Under the pieces are notes generated by a model, which made no database searches, was not told the DNA's origin, and saw only the letters and a list, made by a program, of their open reading frames with translations. Positions 4,852-59,229 of a stretch of DNA of 62,215 nucleotides are shown here, piece after piece. Source of the DNA: a virus (taxonomy: Duplodnaviria; Caudoviricetes); the IMG/VR virus record IMGVR_UViG_3300037042_003397, positions 1 to 62,215 of that record; one strand, written 5' to 3'. The stretch's first letter is position 1, and the number at the start of each line of letters is the position of its first letter. Both the position numbers and the translations under genes were made by a program.

Positions 4852-5159
4852 TGTACATCTCCCAAAATTTAGAATAAATCACGGGCGGCCAAACCCCGGT
4901 GGGGCTGGGTCCGCATCGAATTTCGATTTTATCTATAATTTATTCATTGACCAAATTCTACCGTACAAGATGTGTATGTCATATGTGACGAATGTCAAAT
5001 TATAGTCATTTTTGTGGCTGTTTTGTAACCGGTTCCCCTATTACATTTTCATAAATCTATGCGAAATTGTCATGCCCAGTTTATGACTTTCGTCGCATGA
5101 ACGTTCAGTAAGTTGTGAAAGTTGACAATTTAGGTAAAAAATATCTAAAATTGGAGCAG

Positions 5160-5300
5160 GGTGGTTTCGGCATTATCTCAGGATCGGCCCTCATTTTTGA
5201 CAAAATATTATGACCATAACTTGAAAATCAGCATCCATTGTGGTGGTTTCGGCATCCACTCACGATTGCACCTCATTTCTTGAAAAATAATATGACCATA
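5160..5300. repeat. imperfect ~59-bp direct repeat, two copies 82 bp apart
   Basis: GGTGGTTTCGGCAT...CCTCATTT...TATGACCATA at 5160-5218 and 5242-5300. Confidence 0.85.
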
Positions 5301-5483
5301 TTCATCCATATTCCTATACAGACATTCTCTCATCCCATTCTCACAAACCCTATCAAAAGCTATCAAATTGAAAATTAGCGCAGAGAGTCAGTGAGGAGCG
5401 AAGCGACGAACTGACAACGGAGAAAATTCAAAAAAAATAAGTCGATTCTGTTAATTAATAATATAAGTATAGAACAAAGTACA

Positions 5484-5564
5484 ACCATGAATAATTATTC
5501 ACAGCCGATTGACCATGAATAATTATTCTTGCCTATTGACTTTTGAAAAAAAAATGGTTACACT
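5484..5564 (+). promoter_or_regulatory. sigma70-type promoter with two upstream palindromic operators
   Basis: ACCATGAATAATTATTC at 5484-5500 and 5512-5528 (each contains palindrome GAATAATTATTC); TTGACT(5536-41)-17 bp-TACACT(5559-64). Confidence 0.6.
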
Positions 5565-5735
5565 TAGGGAGGGTGGGTGGGGAAAGGGAAAATAGAAATT
5601 TAATTAATATATATATATATATTAATATAACTTGTTGTAATTTTTGTAATTTTTGTAATTTTACTACATGCATGTAATTTTACTACATGACACCTCTTAC
5701 CCTGCCTGGTATGAGTGTGGCATGGTCACAATACA

Positions 5736-5845
5736 ATACTCGGCAAGCGTACTCTACCATACCACATACCATACTCGGCAGATGGAACCTGCTACCTCAC
5801 AAGACATACTCGGCAGGGTGAACTGCACATAGCACATACCGGGCA
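5736..5845. repeat. iteron-like 10-bp repeats
   Basis: ATACTCGGCA at 5736, 5771, 5806 (35-bp period), ATACCGGGCA at 5836, related inverted copy at 5702-5713. Confidence 0.8.
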
Positions 5846-6137
5846 AGGTATACTCACTGAGTAAGGACAGTAGGAACACGCTTCGCTTCGCTCCGCTACT
5901 ATATACTCGTCGCTCCGCTCCTCGTATATAGTAGCGGAGCGTACCTAAACATTTTTTGAATTTTCGATTTGAAATTGAAATTTTCCAATTTGCTGCTTAA
6001 ACTTGGAAACCGTGGAGTCGCCGAAGGCGTTCCTCGCTGCCTATACCGGATAGTATAGAAACTGATAGGCTATGCGCATATGCTACTGTTGTAATTATGA
6101 TGAACATAGTCGTATAATATAAGGTGAGGAATTTGAT

Positions 6138-44254: not shown

Positions 44255-44286
44255 TAAAATGCCTACGATAAATCGTAGGCATTTTA
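44255..44286. terminator. bidirectional terminator between convergent arms
   Basis: TAAAATGCCTACGAT/ATCGTAGGCATTTTA inverted repeat. Confidence 0.9.
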
Positions 44287-45295: not shown

Positions 45296-46946
45296 GAATA
45301 CTCTCCTTGAAGTCTAAAGTATAGTTTCTCATTGAGTACGGATCAATCATTGACCCATCTGCCAATGCAGCCACATTATACATATAACTGCCATCATACT
45401 CCCTTTCTCCACGAATGACACGCCCACATGCCTGCTGAGTGCCACAATGGGCACTCCAAAACGCATACCGCTTTCCTTCTTTTGTGCTCATCCGTAAACT
45501 TTGGAACCGATCAGCAGGATTGCTATGATTTATTCCACCAACAATTGCAAATCTTCCCCTTTCATCTCTCAGGTCAGTTCCAGTTCCTAATCCCTGTAGA
45601 GTGTCGACCATGATCGTACCTGGTTCAGAATCAATAAAGGAATTCAATCTTTCAGATACTCCCATTCCTTCTTTTGTTCTTAATATTCTTAGTGGGAAAT
45701 CTCTTATCAGATAATCTCTCAATGTTTTCACCTTATAATTGCTGCTGGTCAAAACGATCCCACGCCACTTTGGATCGAACATATTAATAAATTGAGTTAT
45801 CGCATTGGCTTGAATTTTATAAAGTGATGGGTTTTTATCGAGATTTACTTTGGTCATTTTCGGAACATCCAAAGAGTAGACCGGTCTTTTCTCAATAGGA
45901 ACCGGATGTGGATATTCAAAGAACTTGAAATCTTCTACTCCCAATTCGCCGAATAGCGGCTGTGGATCTCCAATGGTTGCACTCATCAGCATTACCATTT
46001 TCTTGTTTGCGAATAAAGTGCTGGCAATGTTCTTCGCCGTTAGCGTTCTTATCGAGAATACAAGTTGATTTTGCTTCCGGCAGAACGATCTCCAATCATT
46101 ATCGCCAATCGACTTTGAAGAACATTTATAGAATAAATCTTCTTCTTCAATAATGAGATTGAACAATTTATTCAACGAGTCAAACACCTTCACTGTTTTT
46201 GATCCAGTAGGTGTCATCTTGTCAAACAAGTCTTTATTGGACACTTCATTGATGCATTCCGATAACCACTCAATAATTATTGCCTTAGATTTTCCGTTTA
46301 GAATATCGCCATCTCCGGAAGGTCCATAATCTATTAGCGGGAAAGTTGGAAATCCATACTTTTCTCTTTCCAATTCATCCATCTCGAAACTGGATAATTT
46401 TAGAAGTTGTTCGACTGAGGTATGCGCTTCATCAAATATTAATATTCCATCACGCTCCTTTACTGCGTCGCTCAACGAAGCATACGCATAAGTACATGCC
46501 ATGCGATTAGATTGAAGTGCAATATTTCTAGCAATTTGATAAGGGCAACTATTTGCATCAGGACAATTCTTCATATCCTTAAAGTGACAGTCTGATGCCA
46601 TTGGCATCAGACTGTAGGACGATTTCCATGTATTTACTTTTGTTTTCAACACACATGGATACTCTTGCTTTCCCTTAATAATATCAAGTCCATATCCATT
46701 TTTATATTGATCCAATAGTCCATGATTTTGAACCAATACTGTCGTTTTTGCTAAACTTGACAATGCCTTTGCTACTCCACTCTTTCCAACGCCAACGCAT
46801 AATTGAAAGCCGGCGAACGTTGCTCCAGATGATCCACTTTCAATGAACCCGTTATAAATCTGAGATGCTTTTCTGAAGGCTTGAAATTGAGATGGTCTCC
46901 ATTGCGAATGAGGTAATCCTAATGAGCGAGGGTCTAATGATGGCAT
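45273..46946 (-). CDS. DinG/XPD-like superfamily 2 helicase
   Basis: WRPSQ, GVGKS, DEAH, SAT, QACGRVIR; Cys cluster suggests an FeS site. Confidence 0.85.
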   Translation of the reverse strand: MPSLDPRSLGLPHSQWRPSQFQAFRKASQIYNGFIESGSSGATFAGFQLCVGVGKSGVAKALSSLAKTTVLVQNHGLLDQYKNGYGLDIIKGKQEYPCVLKTKVNTWKSSYSLMPMASDCHFKDMKNCPDANSCPYQIARNIALQSNRMACTYAYASLSDAVKERDGILIFDEAHTSVEQLLKLSSFEMDELEREKYGFPTFPLIDYGPSGDGDILNGKSKAIIIEWLSECINEVSNKDLFDKMTPTGSKTVKVFDSLNKLFNLIIEEEDLFYKCSSKSIGDNDWRSFCRKQNQLVFSIRTLTAKNIASTLFANKKMVMLMSATIGDPQPLFGELGVEDFKFFEYPHPVPIEKRPVYSLDVPKMTKVNLDKNPSLYKIQANAITQFINMFDPKWRGIVLTSSNYKVKTLRDYLIRDFPLRILRTKEGMGVSERLNSFIDSEPGTIMVDTLQGLGTGTDLRDERGRFAIVGGINHSNPADRFQSLRMSTKEGKRYAFWSAHCGTQQACGRVIRGEREYDGSYMYNVAALADGSMIDPYSMRNYTLDFKESIHEFKGTL

Positions 46947-46982
46947 AGCATATCCTTTTGAATTGTATTATCTAAAGTAGAC

Positions 46983-47015
46983 AACAATACCCCACAATCG
47001 GCGTGGGGCATTGTT
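46983..47015 (-). terminator. possible terminator hairpin
   Basis: AACAATGCCCCAC/GTGGGGTATTGTT stem on the minus strand. Confidence 0.5.
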
Positions 47016-47041
47016 ATATATTAATCATAGCACGAGATTGA

Positions 47042-47452
47042 CTAAAATGTTTCTTCTTTTGGCACCAAAATACTTTTGAGGCGTGTGATATTATTGAACA
47101 AATAAGTTGGCTGAAGCGTCATATCGAGAATTATTTGTGCAATTCTATCCAAGTCCTCTCCATCTGTTATCAATTCATTCAGAAGTAAAACGGCCACATT
47201 GATATAAGAACTTGTATATTTTCCTTTTCCGAATTCTACGATTTGCATTGTTCTTTTTAGCGTGTCAGGAGGTAATGTGATTTTTAATGTTACCTTTAAA
47301 TCCTTTCCTGAAAATGTTTTTTTTCTTATTTTTTGCTGGTCAACGTAGATAGATACAAATTCTGCGCTCTGGTTAAATTCTTTTTCCAATTTCACCTGTT
47401 CGTTATTTTTCTTTTCAACCATCCACGACATGTACTTATGCTGTTTTGCCAT
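47042..47452 (-). CDS. hypothetical protein
   Basis: ORF 47042..47530; likely start MAKQHK. Confidence 0.6.
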   Translation of the reverse strand: MAKQHKYMSWMVEKKNNEQVKLEKEFNQSAEFVSIYVDQQKIRKKTFSGKDLKVTLKITLPPDTLKRTMQIVEFGKGKYTSSYINVAVLLLNELITDGEDLDRIAQIILDMTLQPTYLFNNITRLKSILVPKEETF

Positions 47453-47984
47453 TATGTTTACCCTTCGCCTTGATACTTTTCTTAGACTCGGCGACTGCAT
47501 CGTAGAAGTTTTTTCTCCATTCTTTTCCAAGAATTATTGATGCGAATGTCTCGATTGAAATTACAAATAATCCACTAACTCTTTCCTTTGAAAATCCTTC
47601 TTGAATAACGAGTAATGAATTAGCGATCATGAACAAGAATTTATTGATTTCAATTACCGACGCATTATCTTCTAAGTCGCCGAGATAATACCATCTCTTT
47701 TCTTGCTCATCGTATCCATTCTCCACTAATTTTACAATATTCTTACACCCTTGAATGAACGTGTCTACATTTTCACTTTCGTTAGAGGCGATAAACATCC
47801 CATCGGCATACCTCTTTATTTCTATAAACCACGGAGATTCGTTTGCAAAAATGATGAAATCGCATAACATCCTTGATTGAGTTGTCTTCTCGTTCATCAT
47901 TGAGATAATATCAATGACTGCCAATTGTGCCTCGCACGGATTTTTCCATGTGTAATCGTACCCATTACTTTTGTTTATTTGCAT
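47436..47984 (-). CDS. hypothetical protein
   Basis: 182 aa, GAGGT RBS. Confidence 0.7.
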   Translation of the reverse strand: MQINKSNGYDYTWKNPCEAQLAVIDIISMMNEKTTQSRMLCDFIIFANESPWFIEIKRYADGMFIASNESENVDTFIQGCKNIVKLVENGYDEQEKRWYYLGDLEDNASVIEINKFLFMIANSLLVIQEGFSKERVSGLFVISIETFASIILGKEWRKNFYDAVAESKKSIKAKGKHNGKTA

Positions 47985-48725
47985 TTATACCTCACTATTT
48001 AAATTTGAAATTTCCTCAAAAGTTCCAAGATCGTGATATTCACAATTAAGGATAATATTAGCGATCACACTGTATCTCTCTTTTGAGGCTGCAATATTGA
48101 TGATATTTGCAAAATCAAAAATACCATTTTTTACGCAAGTATGAATCAGTTCTGTAAATCGTTGATGCCAGTACATAAATCCCCATACGTATTCCAGCTT
48201 TGTTACTTTTGGCTTATCTACCACATTAACCACTTCTATATTCTTCAGTTCGACCATCCCGAACTTTTCTGGATGATCTGTTTTGAACAGTCCCATAGAC
48301 ACATAATACTCATCTCCCGGAACGGTCATAATATCTGCAAATATATCTATTGGGCTTATGATCGTATCTGCCATACCGAATACTACTCTTTTTCCACTGG
48401 TCAAATGATAAGCAGCGTCAATCGCACTTGCAAGACCTGGTGATGTTGACTTGTAATTACTATCTGGCAAATCTTCTTGAACAACGTAACTTATATTACA
48501 TCCAAATCTTTTTCCACTTCCAAAGTATTTTATCAACTGACTTTTCTCATCATTAATAACAAATACGATATGATTTACTCCAACATACAACATATTTTCA
48601 AGTATGTACTGCGCCACTGGTTTATACTTGTTATCCCTAATGATCGGGTACAATTCTTTCGGAAATGGAATATTAAGTCTTAATCCCTTTCCGGCAGCCG
48701 GTATCAATCCAATAATTTTATCCAT
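47985..48725 (-). CDS. sugar-1-phosphate nucleotidyltransferase (RmlA/GalU-like)
   Basis: GLIPAAGKGLRL..PKELYPI, YVVQ..GLASAI, VVDKP, DLGT. Confidence 0.9.
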   Translation of the reverse strand: MDKIIGLIPAAGKGLRLNIPFPKELYPIIRDNKYKPVAQYILENMLYVGVNHIVFVINDEKSQLIKYFGSGKRFGCNISYVVQEDLPDSNYKSTSPGLASAIDAAYHLTSGKRVVFGMADTIISPIDIFADIMTVPGDEYYVSMGLFKTDHPEKFGMVELKNIEVVNVVDKPKVTKLEYVWGFMYWHQRFTELIHTCVKNGIFDFANIINIAASKERYSVIANIILNCEYHDLGTFEEISNLNSEV

Positions 48726-48816
48726 GTAAAATCCTAATAGTTTTTGTTTGTGGCTGTCAAGTTGGCGCTAGTATGACAATTTAAGGTCTCGTCCTATGAC
48801 CACACCACTTTGTTAT

Positions 48817-50961
48817 TTACATATCAACCTTGATCTCTCGCATCGTGAACAGGAAGTCAAATCCGGCAACGTTCATAGTTGCCCCTTCTCTTTGCGTCAA
48901 ATCAGGGAACCACTTCTTTCCAAGAAGAATAGCAAACTTTGTTCGATTTAGCGTGTTGCGAACATTCTTCAGTATAGACTTTCTGTTTTCAATCGCAGCC
49001 TCCAACCATAGAACAGCCAGCTTCTTTTCGGAAGTACTATCGGAAACGGAAATACTTTTGACTTCCGATGGTAGTTCTCCCATCGCTGCCCAGATCATCA
49101 TTTCCGATTCGGTCATTTTCTTTCCACTTGAATTTTTCAGCAACACAGCATTGATACTCGGTAACGATGAGAACTTCTGCATCTTCACATCAAATTCTCT
49201 CGCTATGTAGAAGTCCGTGATCGGGTAATCTTCCTTTGGAGGATTGTACCCATTCTTTGTTACTCCCTGAGTATCAAGATAAGTTACCTGATCGTTGCTC
49301 AATGCGACCGTTTCAAGTTTATCATCTGGATCAATTTCATTCTTTTTCCATTTCATAACCTTGAGCAATGCTTCTGAGTACTTCTCAGTAGATAGCAACG
49401 AGCAGTAATCCAATGCTTTCACTTCATCGAATTTACGGTTCATCACTGGAATTCGTTTCAGGTTAATCACGTATATTTCATCTGCATTCCAGTCACCCTT
49501 AACGATCTTTTCTTTCTTCAATGTATTGAATGACGCTTCCGATAACTTGACTGGCAATGATGTTACGTTCAGGTTGCCATCAAGAACGATAGTGTAATTC
49601 CTGAAAATCCAGGTCGGGTACACTTTCGCAAATCCAAACTTTTCACAGTCATAATTCAATTCAATCATACCATCTATCTTTACCAGGATACTGATATTGA
49701 GCCTGGTTGCATTCCATGTCAGATCGGATAACCTGCAAGCTGGATTAGTTTCCTTACGCTTGAATTCAGAATAACCATCATGCTGTCTGGTGCGAACACC
49801 TGTTCGCTTGTACTTGAATTCAGGATGATAAGGATAAAAGAACGTGTCCTTATCGTCCCGCAGCATTTCAAGTAAATCCAACATGCAGAACCGATCAACA
49901 CGAGGAACGTACCCCAACCGCCTTCCATCGGTGTATCTCTTATCCTCATGGAACGTTGCATCCAGCAGTTCTTTCTCTACCAACCCATATTCATCGTTGG
50001 TGAACGCATTGTAAAGTCGATCAACCAGAGCAACATCGCCGATCTTGCCGAGTATGGATAGTGCAATATCGCTGTGCATCTTCTGAGAGAAGATCATCGC
50101 ACTTGCGTACAGTCCAGGAAGAATTTCCTGAACATTGATCTTGTCCATGTCCATTGGCGGAGAACTTGTGATGAAGTAAATCTCGTCCGCTTCATCGATC
50201 ATCATACTCGGCATTTCAACGGAGTATTGAGTAATAACACCATCTTTCAGAGTGAAAGCAACATCCATGTTCTTATCAATCAAGAAGCTGATCGGGACAA
50301 CAAACACCTTTCTCGGTGATGCTTTGGCTCCGATAAAGTCTTTCATCGATGAACTGAATTCTTCAAGTTCAGACGAATGAATAAGTTGTCCTCCAATTCT
50401 GGCTGACATATCTGACATCAACTCTTTGTTGTAATAACTTCCATAACCAACAAAGATTGCCTTGCTGATAGTGCCCTTGATGTTATCAATCGCTTCCTTG
50501 ATGTTACGAATTTCTTTGGTGTAATCGCTAACCACCGGGTATCCATCTGTGAAGAACATCAGTCCAAAATTGCTGCACAGCGGATAAATCTCATCAACAA
50601 CTTCCCTGGTATCGTATAGGATTTCACTGAAGCAGGTTGTCCCGATTGGAGATTTATTACTGGCGATGATCCTTTTGAATGTTTCTACATCATCATGCGA
50701 TTGCTTTACGAACCCTTTCAAGATGAACCGGAATTTTCCTTCACCGGAGAACCACCCCAATGACATGATATCGCCAATGTCGATGCTCTTGTAATGTTCA
50801 ACCAGATCAGCAGCTAATCCGTCCAACATATAACTCATTGACCCGGATCGGTCATAAATCCAGATGTGATTGACTTTTTGCTTTGACTGCTTTACCTCTG
50901 GCTGCTTTGGTATCGCTACTCTTGTCAAAAAGTGATTACTATCCAACTTGATTGTGTCCAT
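48817..50961 (-). CDS. vWA domain protein (714 aa)
   Basis: MIDAS motif DRSGS, T and FFTDG; long uncharacterised C-terminus. Confidence 0.85.
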   Translation of the reverse strand: MDTIKLDSNHFLTRVAIPKQPEVKQSKQKVNHIWIYDRSGSMSYMLDGLAADLVEHYKSIDIGDIMSLGWFSGEGKFRFILKGFVKQSHDDVETFKRIIASNKSPIGTTCFSEILYDTREVVDEIYPLCSNFGLMFFTDGYPVVSDYTKEIRNIKEAIDNIKGTISKAIFVGYGSYYNKELMSDMSARIGGQLIHSSELEEFSSSMKDFIGAKASPRKVFVVPISFLIDKNMDVAFTLKDGVITQYSVEMPSMMIDEADEIYFITSSPPMDMDKINVQEILPGLYASAMIFSQKMHSDIALSILGKIGDVALVDRLYNAFTNDEYGLVEKELLDATFHEDKRYTDGRRLGYVPRVDRFCMLDLLEMLRDDKDTFFYPYHPEFKYKRTGVRTRQHDGYSEFKRKETNPACRLSDLTWNATRLNISILVKIDGMIELNYDCEKFGFAKVYPTWIFRNYTIVLDGNLNVTSLPVKLSEASFNTLKKEKIVKGDWNADEIYVINLKRIPVMNRKFDEVKALDYCSLLSTEKYSEALLKVMKWKKNEIDPDDKLETVALSNDQVTYLDTQGVTKNGYNPPKEDYPITDFYIAREFDVKMQKFSSLPSINAVLLKNSSGKKMTESEMMIWAAMGELPSEVKSISVSDSTSEKKLAVLWLEAAIENRKSILKNVRNTLNRTKFAILLGKKWFPDLTQREGATMNVAGFDFLFTMREIKVDM

Positions 50962-51012
50962 GCTGCTCCTTTTCTGTATTTCAAAATTGAAAATTTATTG
51001 TGAATTAATACT

Positions 51013-51054
51013 ATTATACCATATGACCATAATAATGCAATAGGCAAAATACTT
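51013..51054 (-). promoter_or_regulatory. promoter for the vWA operon
   Basis: AAGTATTTTG box, TTGCAT-16 bp-TATAAT with extended TG. Confidence 0.75.
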
Positions 51055-51077
51055 CAATATTCTTACTCAAGAAATAA

Positions 51078-52158
51078 ATAACGATCTCTGGCATAGCGTT
51101 TTCGGTCTTGCGCTGACCTAAACTTTTGCATTTCCAGAGATCGTTATCCGGCTAACTTATACCGGTCGCCTTCTCCTTGTCCGGCTGGATGACGTTGACA
51201 AGTCAACGTGCCAACTTCTCAGGCGAAGCTTCAACTTAGTTTTCCACCACGTTTCTTATGTATAGATGGCTCGTTTTTCTTTTGATACGTTATTCTATCT
51301 TTTACTAGAATTATCATTTCTAGTGCCAAGTTATTGTTTTTAAGGAGAGCCTGGTGGAGATTTTCACCCACTCCGGATTGTCAGTTCCTTTTACCTGATC
51401 CTCTACGATGCGACACATCGTTACAAGATCATTATCCGAAGCAATCTCATATTCGGTCAGGCTCGTGTTAAATTCCGGTTACGTTTCCGGAGTGTTAGTT
51501 ACAAACACCGACTTATCCATTTTTCCGCAAGGAGTTTACATTCCTTGTCAATGCCAATTAGCGGTTGTGGGAAGGGGGACTCCACCATTTGTTCTATGTC
51601 GCTTCCTTATCGCATTGATGGTCGGAAGAAGCGTCCGAAGATACTACACATCTTTAATGGTCTATGATCGACTACTGGAATAATTGAAAAGTTTCCACAA
51701 AGATGTAATCTTTATTTTCACTTATCGTGTGGGTTGCAGATTTGTCCTCACCTCACCGGTCATATCCGGACAGGCACTCGTCTTCATCACGATTTCACGA
51801 TAAATTTCTGTTTCAATTTGTTTTCACTTCTAAGCTGTAAGCACTATGAAGCGATAACGGTCTCTTTTACAACATGGGAGATACAAAGCACACAACGGCA
51901 TCAACCCTTTGTCTGTTTTACGCTCTCATCTATCGTTGCGTACAAAACATACAGTGTGCTAACCACCTCTCGGTCCTTGACGAAAGAAATGAAAAGGTGG
52001 CTAAGTGAGACTTGCCAGCTTCGATCTGGCTTGCAGTTGTAGCGCAATTTGATTTCTCAATATTGGCAGTTCGACCACAATTCCAGTAGTCTCATGAATG
52101 TAGTTGATTGACACTTTTTTGGCTTTGTCTACCATAATTCTGCATCAATCAACTACAT
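51078..52158 (-). ncRNA. candidate large structured non-coding RNA (~1.08 kb)
   Basis: no credible ORF; many helices including 14-bp terminal hairpins, a 12-bp long-range helix and a pseudoknot-forming pair; G-U pairs favour the minus strand. Confidence 0.7.
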
Positions 52159-52162
52159 GGTA

Positions 52163-52204
52163 ATTATTACATAAAGAGAACACAATTACTAGTGCCAAAA
52201 TACT
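52163..52204 (-). promoter_or_regulatory. predicted promoter of the ncRNA
   Basis: AGTATTTTG box then TAGTAA-17 bp-AATAAT with extended TG; start falls at the first helix. Confidence 0.5.
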
Positions 52205-52241
52205 GTATTTTCTTATTACATTTATTACAATTTGCTATTTT

Positions 52242-52273
52242 AAATTGTACTTTTATGCCAATAAGTACAATTT
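52242..52273 (-). terminator. hairpin at the end of the clamp gene
   Basis: AAATTGTACTT/AAGTACAATTT inverted repeat. Confidence 0.5.
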
Positions 52274-53370
52274 CACAGCGACTTTGGCATCAATATCGAA
52301 GTCCAGCTTGAGTTATCTTTTCCCTTGAACTGGATCGGACTTCTTGGTGTGTTGATACTGGCTATCGTCATATCGCCAAAAGGTTTTGCCATGCCTAGTA
52401 TCATTTGAAGTCTTATCGGATCAAGAATAATGGTATCGCAATCTTCACTAACAACAGCTTTGCAATCCTCGTATGTTGATCCCTCATCTCCTTCTGCCAT
52501 AATCAAGATATTCCCGTTTTCTTTGGACATATCAATCTTGACGACATCTTCATTGAAAATCCTTGATCTCTTTATGACATTTGAGACAGTTTTGTTGTCA
52601 AATTCAATAAAAGATGCGAACCTTTTCGGGATAATTGAGTCTGCATTCGGATATTTCTCCATAATTAACAATGACATTAACTCAATACCAGGTGCGGTAA
52701 TAGAGATAGCTGATCTGCTCAACTTCACACTCAATTCAGATTTTTTGATACTGGCAATAGATGACATGAACTTGCCCGGTATGACATAGGATATTGGCTC
52801 ATCGAAATTACTGATCTTATCCACCGTAATCCCGATCCTGCTCAACATATATCCATCTGTACACGTGAGTGTAAAATCTTTATCACTGATTGTTTTTAGT
52901 TCAACACCCGTTTGCTCAACTTTTATGTTGAAGTTCTTTGATATAGAACCGATGATCGATGCGATTGCCCTGTTTAACTCGTCTGAATTTATCGTAAACT
53001 CAATTCCATCTTCTACCGGAGAAGCGACAGGATACTCGTAAGATGGAAACGACGTTATCGTCACCTTACTCTTATCCTGGAATTTCAAAGTGACAACACC
53101 CTTATTCTCGTAAATATCAATCATTCCAGTGTTCTGAGAAATGCAACTCAGCAGTCTTTCTTCTGGAACACAAATATCAAGACTGTCTATAGTCGAGATA
53201 ACATCTGTGGTAACAATGGCTCTTTGCTCAAGATTTGTTCCTTCAACAGACAACATAGCGCCATCGAACTTGATGCGAACACACTCCAGAATTGGAAGTG
53301 TACTTTTTCGAGGAACATAATTCCTGACAATGCGAACTGCACTTTTTAATATCTCCAACTGTATTATCAT
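52273..53370 (-). CDS. dnaN: DNA polymerase III beta sliding clamp
   Basis: KSTLPILE, GTNLE, CTDGYML, KYPNADSIIP, ILMP C-terminus; 365 aa. Confidence 0.92.
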   Translation of the reverse strand: MIIQLEILKSAVRIVRNYVPRKSTLPILECVRIKFDGAMLSVEGTNLEQRAIVTTDVISTIDSLDICVPEERLLSCISQNTGMIDIYENKGVVTLKFQDKSKVTITSFPSYEYPVASPVEDGIEFTINSDELNRAIASIIGSISKNFNIKVEQTGVELKTISDKDFTLTCTDGYMLSRIGITVDKISNFDEPISYVIPGKFMSSIASIKKSELSVKLSRSAISITAPGIELMSLLIMEKYPNADSIIPKRFASFIEFDNKTVSNVIKRSRIFNEDVVKIDMSKENGNILIMAEGDEGSTYEDCKAVVSEDCDTIILDPIRLQMILGMAKPFGDMTIASINTPRSPIQFKGKDNSSWTSILMPKSL

Positions 53371-53379
53371 TGTATCTCC

Positions 53380-53793
53380 TTAAGGTATTTCAAAAAATAC
53401 TTCATCTCTAAAAATATAAGCAACAAGAGGAATTGGCACTTTCAATTTGTATGCGAAGTTTCTTGCAGCAGCTTCAATCATCTTCAAGTCAAACATATCC
53501 GTATTATCTCTGTTTGCCCACGCAATACATCTTTGCGGAAACTCAGTAACTTCCTTTACGTAAACAATCCTCATTATCAATTCTTTAGTTTCCAAGTTAT
53601 CAATATCTCCCAGATAATAATTTCTTATCTTTTCAACAATCATAGCCTGGTCAATTGTCAATCTTTTGCTTTTTTCGACTATGCGAAGCAGCAGTTTTAT
53701 TTTTTTCTCGTCCGCTGTTGAGATCGGCAGGTCTAATAACTTGTTGCAGATTTCTATAATTTCTTGGGCAGATTGCGATTGATTGTCTATCAT
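53380..53793 (-). CDS. hypothetical protein
   Basis: 137 aa, GGAG RBS. Confidence 0.65.
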   Translation of the reverse strand: MIDNQSQSAQEIIEICNKLLDLPISTADEKKIKLLLRIVEKSKRLTIDQAMIVEKIRNYYLGDIDNLETKELIMRIVYVKEVTEFPQRCIAWANRDNTDMFDLKMIEAAARNFAYKLKVPIPLVAYIFRDEVFFEIP

Positions 53794-54067
53794 AAAACTC
53801 CAAAATTTCTAGTGCCTGATTTTCGTCTCTAACAACATGAATGGCGGAACCGACCCAGTTATCGTGAAACTTGATCTCGCTTTCTGTCAGTTTTGCATTA
53901 CCGTTCTTGATTTCAAGCAGAACAATAATTCCACTTTTAGACATAACCGTTAGATCTGGATAGCCACGACCAAGCATACTTGTATCTGCAAAACAGTATC
54001 CAGAATGGGTCAAGGTTCTTGTTATTGCATTTTGATTTAGATCAATCGACTTCGAGTAATTAGGCAA
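53651..54067 (-). CDS. PD-(D/E)xK nuclease (VRR-NUC/resolvase-like)
   Basis: GRGYPDL..LLEIK..KLTESEIKFHDNW. Confidence 0.8.
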   Translation of the reverse strand: MPNYSKSIDLNQNAITRTLTHSGYCFADTSMLGRGYPDLTVMSKSGIIVLLEIKNGNAKLTESEIKFHDNWVGSAIHVVRDENQALEILEFYDRQSIAICPRNYRNLQQVIRPADLNSGREKNKTAASHSRKKQKIDN

Positions 54068-54213
54068 TGTTATGCTTCTTATTCATCTCTTTTATTGCTT
54101 CAAATTTGACTTTATTGAACCATTCTTCATAAGTCATAATTTCTTCATTGTGAACTCTCGCATTGACCACGTACTTATTATATTCATCATGGATCGCTTT
54201 GGTTACATCCAGA

Positions 54214-54405
54214 TCAGTCGATTTCATTTTCTTCCTTCACGCTCATCGATTCGGAGTCCATGTAGTCTTCAAATGTTTCTCTTGCGATATCCTTTACCTT
54301 TTCTATCGCATCACTTTCGCTTTCTGCTGTTACCGATTGTATCATTTTGACTATGACATGTTCTCTAAATATCTTTAGCTTGACTCTATATTTCTTTTCC
54401 ATCAT
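54214..54405 (-). CDS. hypothetical protein
   Basis: V.AESESDAIEK motif common in small phage proteins. Confidence 0.6.
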   Translation of the reverse strand: MMEKKYRVKLKIFREHVIVKMIQSVTAESESDAIEKVKDIARETFEDYMDSESMSVKEENEID

Positions 54406-54613
54406 TCAAATCTCCCAATTTTGAATACCGATTTACAATATCTTTTATGCTGATTAACTTTGCACCACATCTTACGCAGTTATCCAGGTTGCAGCTTAAC
54501 GAAGCTGCGCTCAGTCCTGAAGATAATATACAACCACAGTAACCACAAATCAATCTGTAGGTTCCCTTTGATTCTGTTACTCTCAATTCAGCTTGCATTA
54601 TTTTAATACCCAC
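54386..54613 (-). CDS. small zinc-ribbon protein
   Basis: CGYCG..CVRCG. Confidence 0.6.
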   Translation of the reverse strand: MGIKIMQAELRVTESKGTYRLICGYCGCILSSGLSAASLSCNLDNCVRCGAKLISIKDIVNRYSKLGDLNDGKEI

Positions 54614-55494
54614 GAATGAATGCGAAACTTGTCCCTAATGTTGTCATAAATCTTGTCCCAATCGCTCCACTTCTCGTCGTAGCACAATGACCATTTGATC
54701 GCATTCTCATTTTCCGGTTTCATTACTTCGTTATACAATACCTCGTAAGCCGATCCCCTGGTAATCACTCCATCAGCATTGGCATTATATTTCTTTCTCC
54801 ACACGTCCATCCCGGAATGAATTGCATCCATCGACCGGTCTGCTCTTAGCTTTGCAATCACCGGATCAGTTCGCATGTGGTGAAGATAAAAATTAGGAGC
54901 GCAATGAGTGACTATTTTATGTCCAGTCAGATATCTCATTCGATGAGCATACTCCATCTCGGCGAAGTAACTCATGTGGCTATCCAATGTAGTATCGGGA
55001 AGGCCATGATTTAGCGCAGTTTCCCATTTCGTAAAGATGCTATCACCATTGAACCAAGGAATATTTAGAGATACACCATCCACGATAGAACTCGCATCCA
55101 TTCCATAATAATTATGTGGAGTGGAGAATGTCATCAATGCGAAGTTATACTTGAACCAAAAGAACACAAGTTCATTAATCAGTCTTGTACTATTTTGAGT
55201 AAACTCAATATCATCGTCAATATTACAGAAGAAGTTTGCTTCAATCCCGTTATTGACACAGTAGATAAACGCCCAATTCTGGTTGTACCAACTGTTGTTA
55301 ATGTCAGACACGAACAGGATATGATCACAAGTCGTTATGTTCGCACTCTTGATTTCATCAATATCTTCTTTTCTATTGCCGGATATGATGAACAGCACAT
55401 TGGCATGGATCATACTGACTGATCTCAGCAGTTGAATTGCCAATCTTGAAGAATGATAAGTAGACACACCGAAGACAATATCGTATTTATCCAT
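54598..55494 (-). CDS. putative GT-A fold glycosyltransferase
   Basis: start MDKYDIVFGVSTY; FCNIDDDIEF DxD motif; AEMEYAHR. Confidence 0.55.
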   Translation of the reverse strand: MDKYDIVFGVSTYHSSRLAIQLLRSVSMIHANVLFIISGNRKEDIDEIKSANITTCDHILFVSDINNSWYNQNWAFIYCVNNGIEANFFCNIDDDIEFTQNSTRLINELVFFWFKYNFALMTFSTPHNYYGMDASSIVDGVSLNIPWFNGDSIFTKWETALNHGLPDTTLDSHMSYFAEMEYAHRMRYLTGHKIVTHCAPNFYLHHMRTDPVIAKLRADRSMDAIHSGMDVWRKKYNANADGVITRGSAYEVLYNEVMKPENENAIKWSLCYDEKWSDWDKIYDNIRDKFRIHSWVLK

Positions 55495-55861
55495 CTTTAC
55501 CTTCAATATCAGGCAGTCCATAAACTCCATGAATATTCTCAGAAAGATACTTGAGCACAATATCCAATTCTGATTGATCCAGTGAGGTCCAATTAGAAGC
55601 ATCGCTCGATTTTGATCTAACTTCTTTGCCGTAAGTCACGATTGCCGAGTATTGTGATGTGTCTCTCAACACGATAACGGCTCCGTTGAAGTTTGCAAAA
55701 GATACCTGGCTGGATGCTTTAGCAAGAAGGATGAATTGCTTTGCAGATTTAGCGACTTCAATGAGTGTGTCTTCTAGAAGTTCTTTAGATTCGATATCTT
55801 TTTCCATCAGATATTCTTCATTGTTGCGACGATATCTCAAGTTAACCCTGTAAAGTGGCAT
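55487..55861 (-). CDS. hypothetical protein
   Basis: 124 aa, GGGAG RBS. Confidence 0.7.
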   Translation of the reverse strand: MPLYRVNLRYRRNNEEYLMEKDIESKELLEDTLIEVAKSAKQFILLAKASSQVSFANFNGAVIVLRDTSQYSAIVTYGKEVRSKSSDASNWTSLDQSELDIVLKYLSENIHGVYGLPDIEGKDG

Positions 55862-56036
55862 TTTGTTTCTCCCTTTTCAAACATATTTTACAAGTTGATT
55901 TAGTGTTACTTCTCTCGAACAATATCAAAAGTTCGTTTATTTTTACTGCATAGAGTTACTTTCCATCGTATTCGCATAAGTGAACAAGTCTACGCTTATT
56001 GAATATTTTGGTTGGTTGATACTACACTATTTTCAT

Positions 56037-56198
56037 TCAAGTTCCATCTTTACTAACTTGTATTACCTTCAAGCATCGCTTGCAAGTTACTTTTCGTACA
56101 TCATTTGTAATATAATCGTTTCCAACTGAAAATTTCACAATTCCACAAGCTACAACAGGCAAATTTCCATTATTGTGATATGTCTTGTCGGATTTCAT
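56037..56198 (-). CDS. small zinc-binding protein (53 aa, not in ORF track)
   Basis: YH..ACG..VTCKRCLK. Confidence 0.55.
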   Translation of the reverse strand: MKSDKTYHNNGNLPVVACGIVKFSVGNDYITNDVRKVTCKRCLKVIQVSKDGT

Positions 56199-56212
56199 GT
56201 GTACTGGTTTAG

Positions 56213-56458
56213 TCATTTAGTCACCTCGTTCATCGACCGGAAGACGATGATGTGTCCGTTGCCATAAGGGATGCCGCCGTATCCCGGAGCCTGAAGGATC
56301 GCCCGGTTTTTGTCAATTGCAGTCACCGTAAAAGTGACATCACTGGGCACTCCGATGAAACCGGAGAAGTCCTGCCGGTAAATGATCTGATTGCCAGGTT
56401 GGAATTTGACGGTTTTGTTAGGTAAGGATTTCATGCCAGCTTGAAAATTTATGCTCAT
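56213..56458 (-). CDS. hypothetical protein
   Basis: 81 aa, coupled start. Confidence 0.6.
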   Translation of the reverse strand: MSINFQAGMKSLPNKTVKFQPGNQIIYRQDFSGFIGVPSDVTFTVTAIDKNRAILQAPGYGGIPYGNGHIIVFRSMNEVTK

Positions 56459-56658
56459 TTTGCCTCCGTCAGCTTATGTATCTCGTCACAGGCGGCCATC
56501 CAGTTATCATTGACCTCGGATAGCTGCCCTTGCAGGGCTAGGATGCGGCCCTGCAAGGTTTCACGCTCTGCCCTCATATCATCCAGTGACGCCAGGCTGG
56601 TGAACTGCTGCACCATGCCTTCGGGATAAACCAATTTCATCAATATAGGTTCACTCAT
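56455..56658 (-). CDS. coiled-coil hypothetical protein
   Basis: GGAGGTG RBS; similar to parts of the ORFs at 61039 and 61368. Confidence 0.7.
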   Translation of the reverse strand: MSEPILMKLVYPEGMVQQFTSLASLDDMRAERETLQGRILALQGQLSEVNDNWMAACDEIHKLTEAK

Positions 56659-57061
56659 TCGTCACCTCCTCAATAATTTTTGCAATCCCATCGACCACAT
56701 GCCGCATATTGCTGGCTGATACGCAATCTATCGAGATACCACCTGCCGCAAGAACCTCGCGCACTCGCTCCCAATCTGGCTCTGGGAACACATCAATGGG
56801 ATATGCACGCGTCCAATTGGCGATTCGCTCCAGGGTATTCTCAAGTCTGGCGTTATATTCCTCAAGCTCGTTGATGCGGGCTTGCAGCTTGTCTTCGATT
56901 GGGCGATTGTTCCACAAATCATTGTTGTCCCAGTGAATATTTTGAGCCGTACACCCCTCGGTTTTGCAGATGAGATAGGTATTAGGCTCCTGGCGCATAT
57001 TGCGCCACTCTACAAACATCTCTAATCCGCAAAACGGGCATGGTTTCAATTCGTCACTCAT
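56651..57061 (-). CDS. Lar-like (restriction alleviation) zinc-finger protein
   Basis: MSDELKPCPFCG..C..C..WNNR. Confidence 0.75.
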   Translation of the reverse strand: MSDELKPCPFCGLEMFVEWRNMRQEPNTYLICKTEGCTAQNIHWDNNDLWNNRPIEDKLQARINELEEYNARLENTLERIANWTRAYPIDVFPEPDWERVREVLAAGGISIDCVSASNMRHVVDGIAKIIEEVTNE

Positions 57062-57200: not shown

Positions 57201-57204
57201 TTTG

Positions 57205-57277
57205 TGCCTCTGTCGAGAATCGAACTCGAATTATCCATTTAGAGGACGGAAGGTTTATCCATTTATCCTACAGAAGC
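57205..57277 (-). tRNA. tRNA-Arg (anticodon UCU)
   Basis: acceptor GCTTCTG/CAGAGGC, D-loop GG+A20, anticodon stem TCCGT/ATGGA with loop CCTCTAA, T-arm TCGAG-TTCGATT-CTCGA; CCA not encoded. Confidence 0.9.
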
Positions 57278-58374: not shown

Positions 58375-59229
58375 TTACTTGAGGAATTTGGCGATCTCGA
58401 TCACTTTCACGCCATAGCTGTCGGCAACTTTCTTACCACCTTCCTGTTTCAGTTCGTCGGAATGGTTCTTGATTTCATCCAGAACCTGTTCACCGGTAAG
58501 GCCTAAAATATCAGCGACTTCCTTTGCCGACATGGAGTAAATCGCTCCAATAGCATAGCAAGTCATTTCTGGATCGTCCCGATGGATCTCCAAAATCTCC
58601 GAACTTGTCGAACTGGAGTCATCCGTTATAGAAACGCCAGCGTCCTTCATCGCATCCTGAAGTGTTGCGTACACCTTCGATATATAAGGAATTTGGTTTG
58701 GCCGATCAGGAAGTTTTCTACCAGTGTTTGGATCAAGAGCACCCTCTCTCATGTATCCTGAAGGATCATCCATAAATTCCAACTTCGCAATGACTTCAGA
58801 CTTTCCAGGATCAATGTTGAATTTCTCCAGCGACGAAACAATGACCTCTTTGTATCCCGGTGTCCATAACTTATTCGGCCACCACATTGAAGTTACTTTC
58901 CACTGAGAAGTGTTACGACCTAACATATCTGAAGTGTCCATCCAGAAGCAAAAATTTGTTTCAACTTTATTGCCCTTCAGCTCAATGCCATGCTCAACGA
59001 TTGCACGCTTGAACGCAGCCTGTGCAGCTTCTTTTCCCTTGCCACCATCCTCGACAAAACGGTTATAGGGAAACCAGAGTTTGTACTGATCCACATCTTT
59101 CTTCATGGCCTTGAACCCGAAGCCATAATGAACGATCCCGATGTACGACTGAGAACCTTCCTCGGCCACTGTCGTTTCACCAGCAACGACCCACGCACTC
59201 TTCTTTACAGTTGAATCACTATCGGACAT
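58375..59229 (-). CDS. hypothetical protein, possible ssDNA-binding protein
   Basis: consensus promoter, strong RBS, upstream of the ATPase; function inferred from context only. Confidence 0.6.
   Translation of the reverse strand: MSDSDSTVKKSAWVVAGETTVAEEGSQSYIGIVHYGFGFKAMKKDVDQYKLWFPYNRFVEDGGKGKEAAQAAFKRAIVEHGIELKGNKVETNFCFWMDTSDMLGRNTSQWKVTSMWWPNKLWTPGYKEVIVSSLEKFNIDPGKSEVIAKLEFMDDPSGYMREGALDPNTGRKLPDRPNQIPYISKVYATLQDAMKDAGVSITDDSSSTSSEILEIHRDDPEMTCYAIGAIYSMSAKEVADILGLTGEQVLDEIKNHSDELKQEGGKKVADSYGVKVIEIAKFLK

Follow-up and report, generated by a model that had tools for sequence, protein, structure and literature searches.

A non-coding gap within the replication genes

The window analysed here is the whole of IMG/VR virus record IMGVR_UViG_3300037042_003397 (62,215 nt; estimated completeness 80%), from an uncultivated sediment phage, and our subject is a 1311-nt gap (50962-52272) that is free of open reading frames (ORFs) and for which a preliminary description had proposed a long, highly structured minus-strand RNA. 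Flanked by minus-strand genes at 52273-53370(-) and 48817-50961(-), the gap is a real non-coding unit that is conserved, has boundaries resembling a promoter and a terminator, and contains three helices that are far from random. The upstream gene encodes a 365-aa DNA polymerase sliding clamp with Pfam DNA_pol3_beta domains and a match to phrog_947, and the downstream gene a 714-aa vWA-domain protein (phrog_2426). Read 5' to 3', the block comprises a Sak4-like annealing protein, a VRR-NUC/Holliday-resolvase-like endonuclease, the sliding clamp, the gap, the vWA protein, and a helicase and primase, placing the gap inside a minus-strand block of DNA replication and recombination genes.

The absence of a credible ORF, as originally claimed, was borne out by stop codons, codon usage, a check for Shine-Dalgarno (SD) sites and a protein family search. 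All six frames of the gap contain 11 to 33 stops, with TAA, TAG and TGA present in each, so that no stop reassignment opens it. A codon-usage log-odds score trained on 24 other genes, with both flanking genes held out, is +9 to +21 per 100 codons throughout the two flanking genes and negative in all six frames over 50950-52299. AAGGAG-type sequences stand upstream of most of the 12 genes checked and the host uses SD sites; no gap ORF of at least 20 aa on either strand has a good one, a weak AAGG preceding three only (21-23 aa). Pfam and PHROGs searches of the six gap frames, read through with X at stops, returned nothing significant, the best matches being 14.8 bits (cut-off 27) and E 0.077. 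By these four independent tests the gap is truly non-coding. A case for small proteins, a recoded stop codon or a split gene could be built on plus-strand ORFs of 91 and 102 aa and on one plus frame with just 11 stops in 436 codons, but those ORFs lack an SD site, every frame holds all three stop types and scores negatively for codon usage, no protein family matches, and the full-length flanking genes leave no gene for an intron to split; we therefore hold hidden coding to be extremely improbable.

Relatives of the vWA protein span 100% of its length, indicating that its gene is whole, and residues 1-363 of the clamp align to the 368-position phrog_947 profile. As both flanking genes are whole, the gap is not an intron, and a self-splicing intron was discarded because neither gene is split. 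The clamp gene (52273-53370) appears in the protein collection as a product of 327 aa, i.e. with a later start than the 365-aa ORF; the phrog_947 alignment from residue 1 favours the longer form.

Sequence conservation between strains

The gap is present in three DNA sequencing runs from two studies, with X2 and X3 belonging to one study and X1 to the other; X1 and X2 are possible sources of the record and X3 is an independent run. Contigs were compared over 46000-57000, and the figures given here rest on the 23 of 113 contig pieces and 40 of 392 differences listed. Three X3 contigs (50961-51429, 51417-52013 and 51989-52544) span the gap with one substitution and one single-base deletion (51337) in ~1312 nt, set against 34 differences in 4665 nt of flank among the pieces listed. 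X2 has no differences over 51104-52272 (1169 nt) and 45 in 4316 nt of flank, again among the pieces listed and excluding piece 50122-50578. In the second-study contigs as a whole, the gap is near-identical and the flanks differ by 0.5-2%; all four differences in the X2 contig 51489-52544 belong to the clamp gene and begin at 52293. Summed bin depths over 51138-52238 equal the depth of the listed contigs, which thus account for the full depth there, indicating that no more diverged contig, down to 85% identity, aligned to the gap in these runs.

No RNA run was listed among those containing the gap; the one metatranscriptome compared (X4, same sample as X3) yielded contigs over 46927-47141 and 50641-50797 but not over the gap, which says nothing either way. 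Outside the X4-covered stretch, the 34 best-supported flank differences comprise 22 synonymous, 11 non-synonymous and one intergenic change. Since they are mostly synonymous, neutral sites would be diverging several-fold faster than the gap, and with a neutral divergence of a few percent 1.2 kb of unconstrained DNA should carry tens of changes. Even at the overall X3 flank rate (0.73%), ~9.6 changes would be expected in the gap and one or two are seen (Poisson P ~0.001-0.004, a value made too strong by the clustering of the differences). This conservation between strains is the best evidence, as judged from sequence comparison, that the gap sequence itself matters, and purifying selection appears to act at the nucleotide level, for which reason we take the proposed RNA to be functional rather than a spacer.

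Two further features of the strains were noted. The 5' part of the vWA gene (~50100-50960) is hypervariable between co-occurring strains, with the adjoining gap identical; an X2 contig over 50122-50578 has 68 differences in 457 positions, and X3 contigs break at 50836 and 50871 with unrelated loose ends. One X2 contig skips a 381-nt segment within the gap (51091-51471; join 51090>51472), a possible structural variant. It has a depth of 4.27, its shorter side is 47 nt with poor alignment at 51055-51071, and its join follows a diverged version of the box region next to the vWA gene (described below).

Boundary elements, long helices and the search for relatives

The candidate unit is preceded by a promoter-like AGTATTTTG box at 52196-52204(-), so called on the strength of motif enrichment: AGTATTTTG occurs six times in the window against 0.89 expected, and none of 100 shuffles reaches six. 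Four of the copies are minus-strand ones that precede genes of that strand or the gap unit, for which reason we read the box as probably promoter-associated. The promoter originally proposed thus keeps a genome-enriched box upstream, but if the box contains a -10-like TATTTT the start would lie near 52190 and not at 52158-52156. A sigma-54 promoter in TGGCAC... was rejected by eye for its wrong spacing, an extended 21-nt promoter motif had a single match, and TTGAAATAC was not upheld as a general motif (24 matches against 28 expected, one mismatch allowed).

Downstream of the box lies a 5' hairpin (52098-52158(-)) formed by a perfect 14-bp repeat that extends to 17 bp with G-U pairs on the minus strand only (-24.4 kcal/mol, z-score (z) -6.3 on minus; -19.0 kcal/mol, z -3.7 on plus). 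It is followed by a predicted domain I of ~430 nt (51664-52095(-)), closed by a perfect 12-bp long-range helix (52091-52080/51681-51670) and four more pairs. The closing helix has a pair probability of 0.96 and the domain folded alone a z of -3.5 (100 shuffles). Within it are a 10-bp helix (51805-51796/51729-51720; pair probability 0.90) and a G-U-containing 13-bp helix (52004-51992/51971-51959; 0.83); the latter and the 17-bp form of the 5' hairpin both need G-U pairs that are available on minus only. In this connection, the two mismatches reported for helix 51960-70/51993-52003 were confirmed and do turn into G-U pairs on the minus strand. A weakly supported domain II (51258-51651(-)) is predicted by both the minimum free energy (MFE) and centroid structures, with closing helices of 8 bp only, a chance-level length. 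At the far end stands a terminator-like 3' hairpin (51065-51147(-); -33 kcal/mol, z -6.3), with a perfect 14-bp stem (51147-51078), A-U rich at its base, and a structured 42-nt loop, followed by a U-rich run (UUAUUUCU; U at six of the first eight bases after the stem). A simple terminator scan misses this hairpin because its loop limit is 8 nt. Between it and the vWA start is a second AGTATTTTG box (51045-51053(-)), 24 bases further on and ~85 nt ahead of the vWA start codon, which would let the vWA gene be transcribed from a promoter of its own and set the gap apart as a unit. A degenerate direct copy of the surroundings of the upstream box (52185-52210) lies at 51316-51341(-), 81% identical over 26 nt; the single-base deletion of X3 falls in it.

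Elsewhere in the window, a perfect 15-bp hairpin with a 2-nt loop and A and T runs on either side (44255-44286) stands where the plus- and minus-strand gene blocks converge, is likely a bidirectional terminator, and is followed by a AGTATTTTG box on the plus strand. An 11-nt sequence, TTTTGAAATAC, occurs at 50976-50986 and 53385-53395 (minus), immediately 5' of the SD site of both gap-flanking genes; the similar TTGAAAATAC precedes gene 58375-59229, and the sequence may represent a shared leader or late-promoter element. Upstream of the clamp, the two minus-strand ORFs 53380-53793 (137 aa) and 53651-54067 (138 aa) share 143 nt. Endonuclease/resolvase families are matched by the 138-aa ORF, and the true start of the 137-aa one probably lies downstream of that listed.

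The helices reported in the preliminary description were largely accurate. Both 14-bp stems (52098-52111/52145-52158 and 51078-51091/51134-51147) and the 12-bp helix (51670-51681/52080-52091) are exactly complementary, and seven of the eight helices specified are exact (six perfect), the remaining one, 51888-94/51954-60, being off by one base as the segment that pairs with 51954-60 is 51887-93. Counting perfect inverted repeats within 600 nt against dinucleotide shuffles, the gap has three of at least 12 bp where 0.033 are expected, and none of 1000 shuffles reaches three. There are 17 such repeats in the whole window, three in this gap, five in the other large gap and nine elsewhere, the last mostly short-loop, terminator-like hairpins.

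Perfect palindromes read alike in DNA, which together with the nucleotide-level conservation would suit a cis-acting site. A DNA-level or R-loop replication element is therefore to be considered, such as a secondary origin of replication, an origin of the ColE1 RNA II or T4 oriF type that uses a primer RNA, or a group of palindromic binding sites for proteins. Also in favour are the promoter-like box leading into the gap and the neighbouring genes, a clamp, a VRR-NUC-like endonuclease and a Sak4-like protein upstream with a helicase and primase downstream. Against this, the gap has no iterons, tandem repeats or AT-rich unwinding stretch, its GC content (0.36-0.46) is not below that of its neighbours, and ~1.1 kb of uniform conservation far exceeds the needs of such sites. 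An iteron-type origin was rejected, as there are only scattered two-copy repeats, no clustered direct repeats and no lowering of GC. A better origin candidate is the second large ORF-free gap (4852-6137), where minus- and plus-strand gene blocks diverge; it contains four CATACTCGGCA-type repeats, a (TA)n run, five perfect inverted repeats of 12-18 bp and the paired direct repeats GGTGGTTTCGGCAT, CATGAATAATTATTC and TAATTTTACTACATG, and looks like a replication origin with divergent promoters. We thus regard a replication element at 50962-52272 as an unlikely explanation, if one that deserves attention.

Searches for relatives of the gap were uniformly negative. We ran cmscan against Rfam 15 (4227 models), over the whole window at gathering score and over 50800-52400 at E<=10. 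The former returned one tRNA only (Arg-TCT at 57204-57277, the sole tRNA, ~5 kb off the gap), and the latter five unrelated matches at chance level (11.9-19.9 bits against cut-offs of 39-80). Membership of GOLLD, ROOL, OLE, HEARO, RNase P, tmRNA and group I/II introns, as the Rfam models define them, is therefore ruled out, and the suggestion that the RNA might belong to GOLLD, ROOL or another curated family found no support in Rfam. A blastn search in distant mode against 50,697 phage records gave no match, and IMG/VR scans queried with either the clamp or the vWA protein turned up no relative. Relatives of the vWA gene were reached by an IMG/VR scan with a 14-sequence vWA alignment (12 loci, 34-40% identity) and a JGI metagenome scan with the first 200 vWA residues (14 loci, 42-57% identity). 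Nhmmer found nothing resembling the gap in these 26 loci and blastn chance matches only (best E 0.85, 0.098); none of the 26 encodes the clamp, and none has a gap of at least 600 nt when ORFs of at least 55 aa on either strand are counted as cover. Rfam, run on ten of the 12 IMG/VR loci (L003 and L012 were omitted as near-duplicates of L002), found tRNAs and nothing else. The three loci L002, L003 and L012 come from different metagenomes but agree in gap layout, in E-value and in their 37% identity to the query, and look like one phage sampled three times; in locus L011 the upstream gap holds 69-86-aa ORFs on the gene strand. The vWA protein has its closest relatives at 48-50% identity among 5.8 billion proteins, found in Logan assemblies only, and is 27-29% identical to proteins of named phages (PBS1/AR9, Rhizobium phages). 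The clamp has no relative at E<=1e-10 among candidates drawn from the same 5.8 billion proteins. On these sequence searches, the phage lineage is isolated.

The same searches bear on the idea that the gap is a recently acquired mobile-element remnant or passenger, with either the 12-bp repeats 398 nt apart as ends like those of a miniature inverted-repeat transposable element, or the hairpins as ends. The perfection of the inverted repeats, the possible 381-nt presence/absence polymorphism and the identity of strains in the gap despite diverged flanks would all fit. Yet the arm-pair patterns of all three long inverted repeats had no match in IMG/VR, and the long-range arm pair with its spacing had none in GTDB genome contigs. 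Moreover, the window holds no second copy, no gap frame has a transposase or homing-endonuclease remnant, no target duplication was seen flanking the repeats, and the skipped 381-nt segment coincides with neither repeat pair. A mobile origin is consequently very unlikely.

A candidate long phage RNA and its comparison with known systems

Beyond the gap's observed non-coding status, three long inverted repeats, enriched motif and sequence identity between samples, we infer transcription, RNA ends, a fold extending past the three long helices, and a function. The single most likely reading, which we hold tentatively, is that the gap is a functional minus-strand non-coding RNA of ~1.1 kb, an orphan candidate. 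It would be a separate minus-strand transcription unit from ~52190 to ~51065, starting after the AGTATTTTG box, opening with the stable 17-bp hairpin, holding the ~430-nt domain closed by the perfect 12-bp long-range helix, and ending at the long hairpin and U-rich run just ahead of the second AGTATTTTG box, which would serve the vWA gene. Most likely it would act in trans as a long RNA of the phage replication-gene block, with domain I as its functional core, and the end hairpins may shield it from nucleases or serve as cleavage sites for a double-strand-specific RNase, freeing the RNA from read-through transcripts. A more far-reaching and rather improbable version is that it represents a new class of >1-kb phage RNA unrelated to GOLLD and ROOL, freed at its terminal hairpins and serving, through its ~430-nt long-range-helix core, as an RNA-only scaffold or decoy in infection. 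The palindromic word UCCGGA and the word CCGG are enriched in the gap (CCGGA 6 against 0.7 expected) and could allow RNA self-association; a CsrA-type GGA sponge was rejected since GGA is absent from the enriched 3-mers.

The choice of strand was upheld, as the minus strand of 51078-52158 folds somewhat better than the plus (MFE -320.8 kcal/mol, z -5.6, against -301.0 kcal/mol, z -4.5; 60 shuffles). The expectation that the element would fold better than shuffled controls also held, but coding sequence of the same genome comes close: same-length sense-strand coding windows (n=6; 18 shuffles each) have z of -4.4, -3.9, -2.3, -1.3, -0.2 and -2.2. By pair-probability measures the gap ranks second of nine transcribed-strand windows; positional entropy averages 0.71 in the gap and 0.57 in the second vWA window. 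Local z stands out only at the two end-hairpin windows (-5.7 at 51025 and -3.1 at 52075). The preliminary picture of a gap packed with helices is thus not sustained, short helices being near chance and the interior folding like neighbouring coding sequence; what is observed is three remarkable helices and no dense ornate fold visible to thermodynamics. The crossing helices proposed as a pseudoknot (51347-53/51458-64 and 51369-77/51486-94) are complementary as described, but of chance length and out-competed by local hairpins in the MFE structure. A lesson of general use is that a strongly negative MFE z of a 1-kb window failed to separate the gap from coding sequence of the same genome, and strain-level conservation did separate them.

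A number of these and other observations weigh against a functional RNA. The two highest-scoring coding windows (z -4.4 and -3.9) are both from the vWA gene, the fraction of bases with pair probability >0.9 is 0.30 in the gap against 0.39 in the second vWA window, and 150-nt local z is -0.93 in the gap (13 windows) against -0.66 in the flanks (88 windows; Mann-Whitney p=0.18). At lengths of 7-9 bp, helices are close to the chance level, with marginal enrichment only (45 against 34.9 in shuffles at 7 bp, 14 against 9.1 at 8 bp and 5 against 2.3 at 9 bp), so that the helices described as nested or pseudoknotted carry no weight. No GNRA tetraloop occurs among the MFE hairpin loops, and the three long helices, being perfect Watson-Crick palindromes, exist just as much in the DNA and in a plus-strand transcript. 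A sigma-70 scan gave no excess of promoters at the gap (6 against 4.8 expected). By sequence search the gap is an orphan, with no homologue in the collections searched and hence no covariation support. The conservation itself rests on effectively one diverged lineage, and as the differences are clustered a recent recombination tract could mimic selection. Finally, the 381-nt skip, if real, would make the 3' third of the element dispensable, including the terminator hairpin; a co-occurring strain would then lack the 3' hairpin and much of domain II, and the core of the element would be 51472-52158.

Several of these points are what would be expected if the gap were an untranslated spacer in a polycistronic minus transcript, in which function is confined to the ends (a hairpin for processing or stability, a terminator, and the promoter that follows), the ~900-nt interior is functionless, and the identity between strains stems from recombination or a sweep. 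Just the two end hairpins stand out locally, the interior resembles coding sequence and short helices are at chance; the clustering of strain differences is as expected from recombination, the identical X3 tract extends into the clamp gene to at least 52544, and the variant contig may miss 381 nt of interior. On the other hand, 22 of the 34 flank differences are synonymous, and a neutral 1.2 kb should have tens of changes where the gap has none to two. The X2 differences start just 21 nt past the gap edge, at 52293. A perfect 12-bp helix over 398 nt is unexpected in spacer DNA, and a phage genome rarely retains a useless kilobase. A spacer with functional ends is accordingly doubtful, though we give it real weight alongside the functional RNA that we favour.

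If the gap does encode such an RNA, several known systems offer points of comparison. Primer or R-loop origins such as ColE1 RNA II and T4 oriF/ori(34) likewise involve a promoter-driven, structured, untranslated transcript in or beside replication functions, but no G-rich transcript prone to RNA-DNA hybrids is seen on the gap minus strand and a better origin-like region lies elsewhere in the phage genome. The early transcripts of phage T7 carry RNase III-processed hairpins between genes. As in T7, long irregular hairpins would stand between genes of one transcription block and would excise and stabilise adjoining RNA segments; the T7 hairpins separate close mRNAs, whereas here two predicted hairpins bracket ~1 kb without a gene. 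Closer in kind are the long non-coding transcripts of Kayvirus (phage K-like), which their describers likened to GOLLD and ROOL by location and abundance, not by homology (PMC9241854). These are phage-borne long non-coding transcripts whose role is given there as unknown (PMC9241854), as the transcript proposed for the gap would be; according to that account theirs were found by RNA-seq and lie beside tRNA genes, whereas the gap is known from its sequence and lies between replication-module genes.

GOLLD and ROOL themselves are described as encoded in phages and prophages and of unknown function, and profiles of both and of OLE are held by Rfam (PMC12286853). The gap differs from them in matching no Rfam model, even at E<=10, in being an orphan where those are backed by covariation in many genomes, and in a predicted fold that is locally no more stable than coding sequence. 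The same source places GOLLD and ROOL "often near tRNA islands" (PMC12286853), whereas the nearest tRNA to the gap is ~5 kb away. An IMG/VR-wide survey, as reported, required several non-identical homologues and returned motifs of 29-151 nt only (PMC10690425), and would for these reasons miss the gap. Few large structured phage RNAs are known and their functions are open; if the gap encodes another, unrelated one, their diversity exceeds the picture given by surveys. With GOLLD and ROOL it would share the defining outline of a large (>0.5 kb) non-coding unit in a tailed-phage genome, standing without an evident protein partner.

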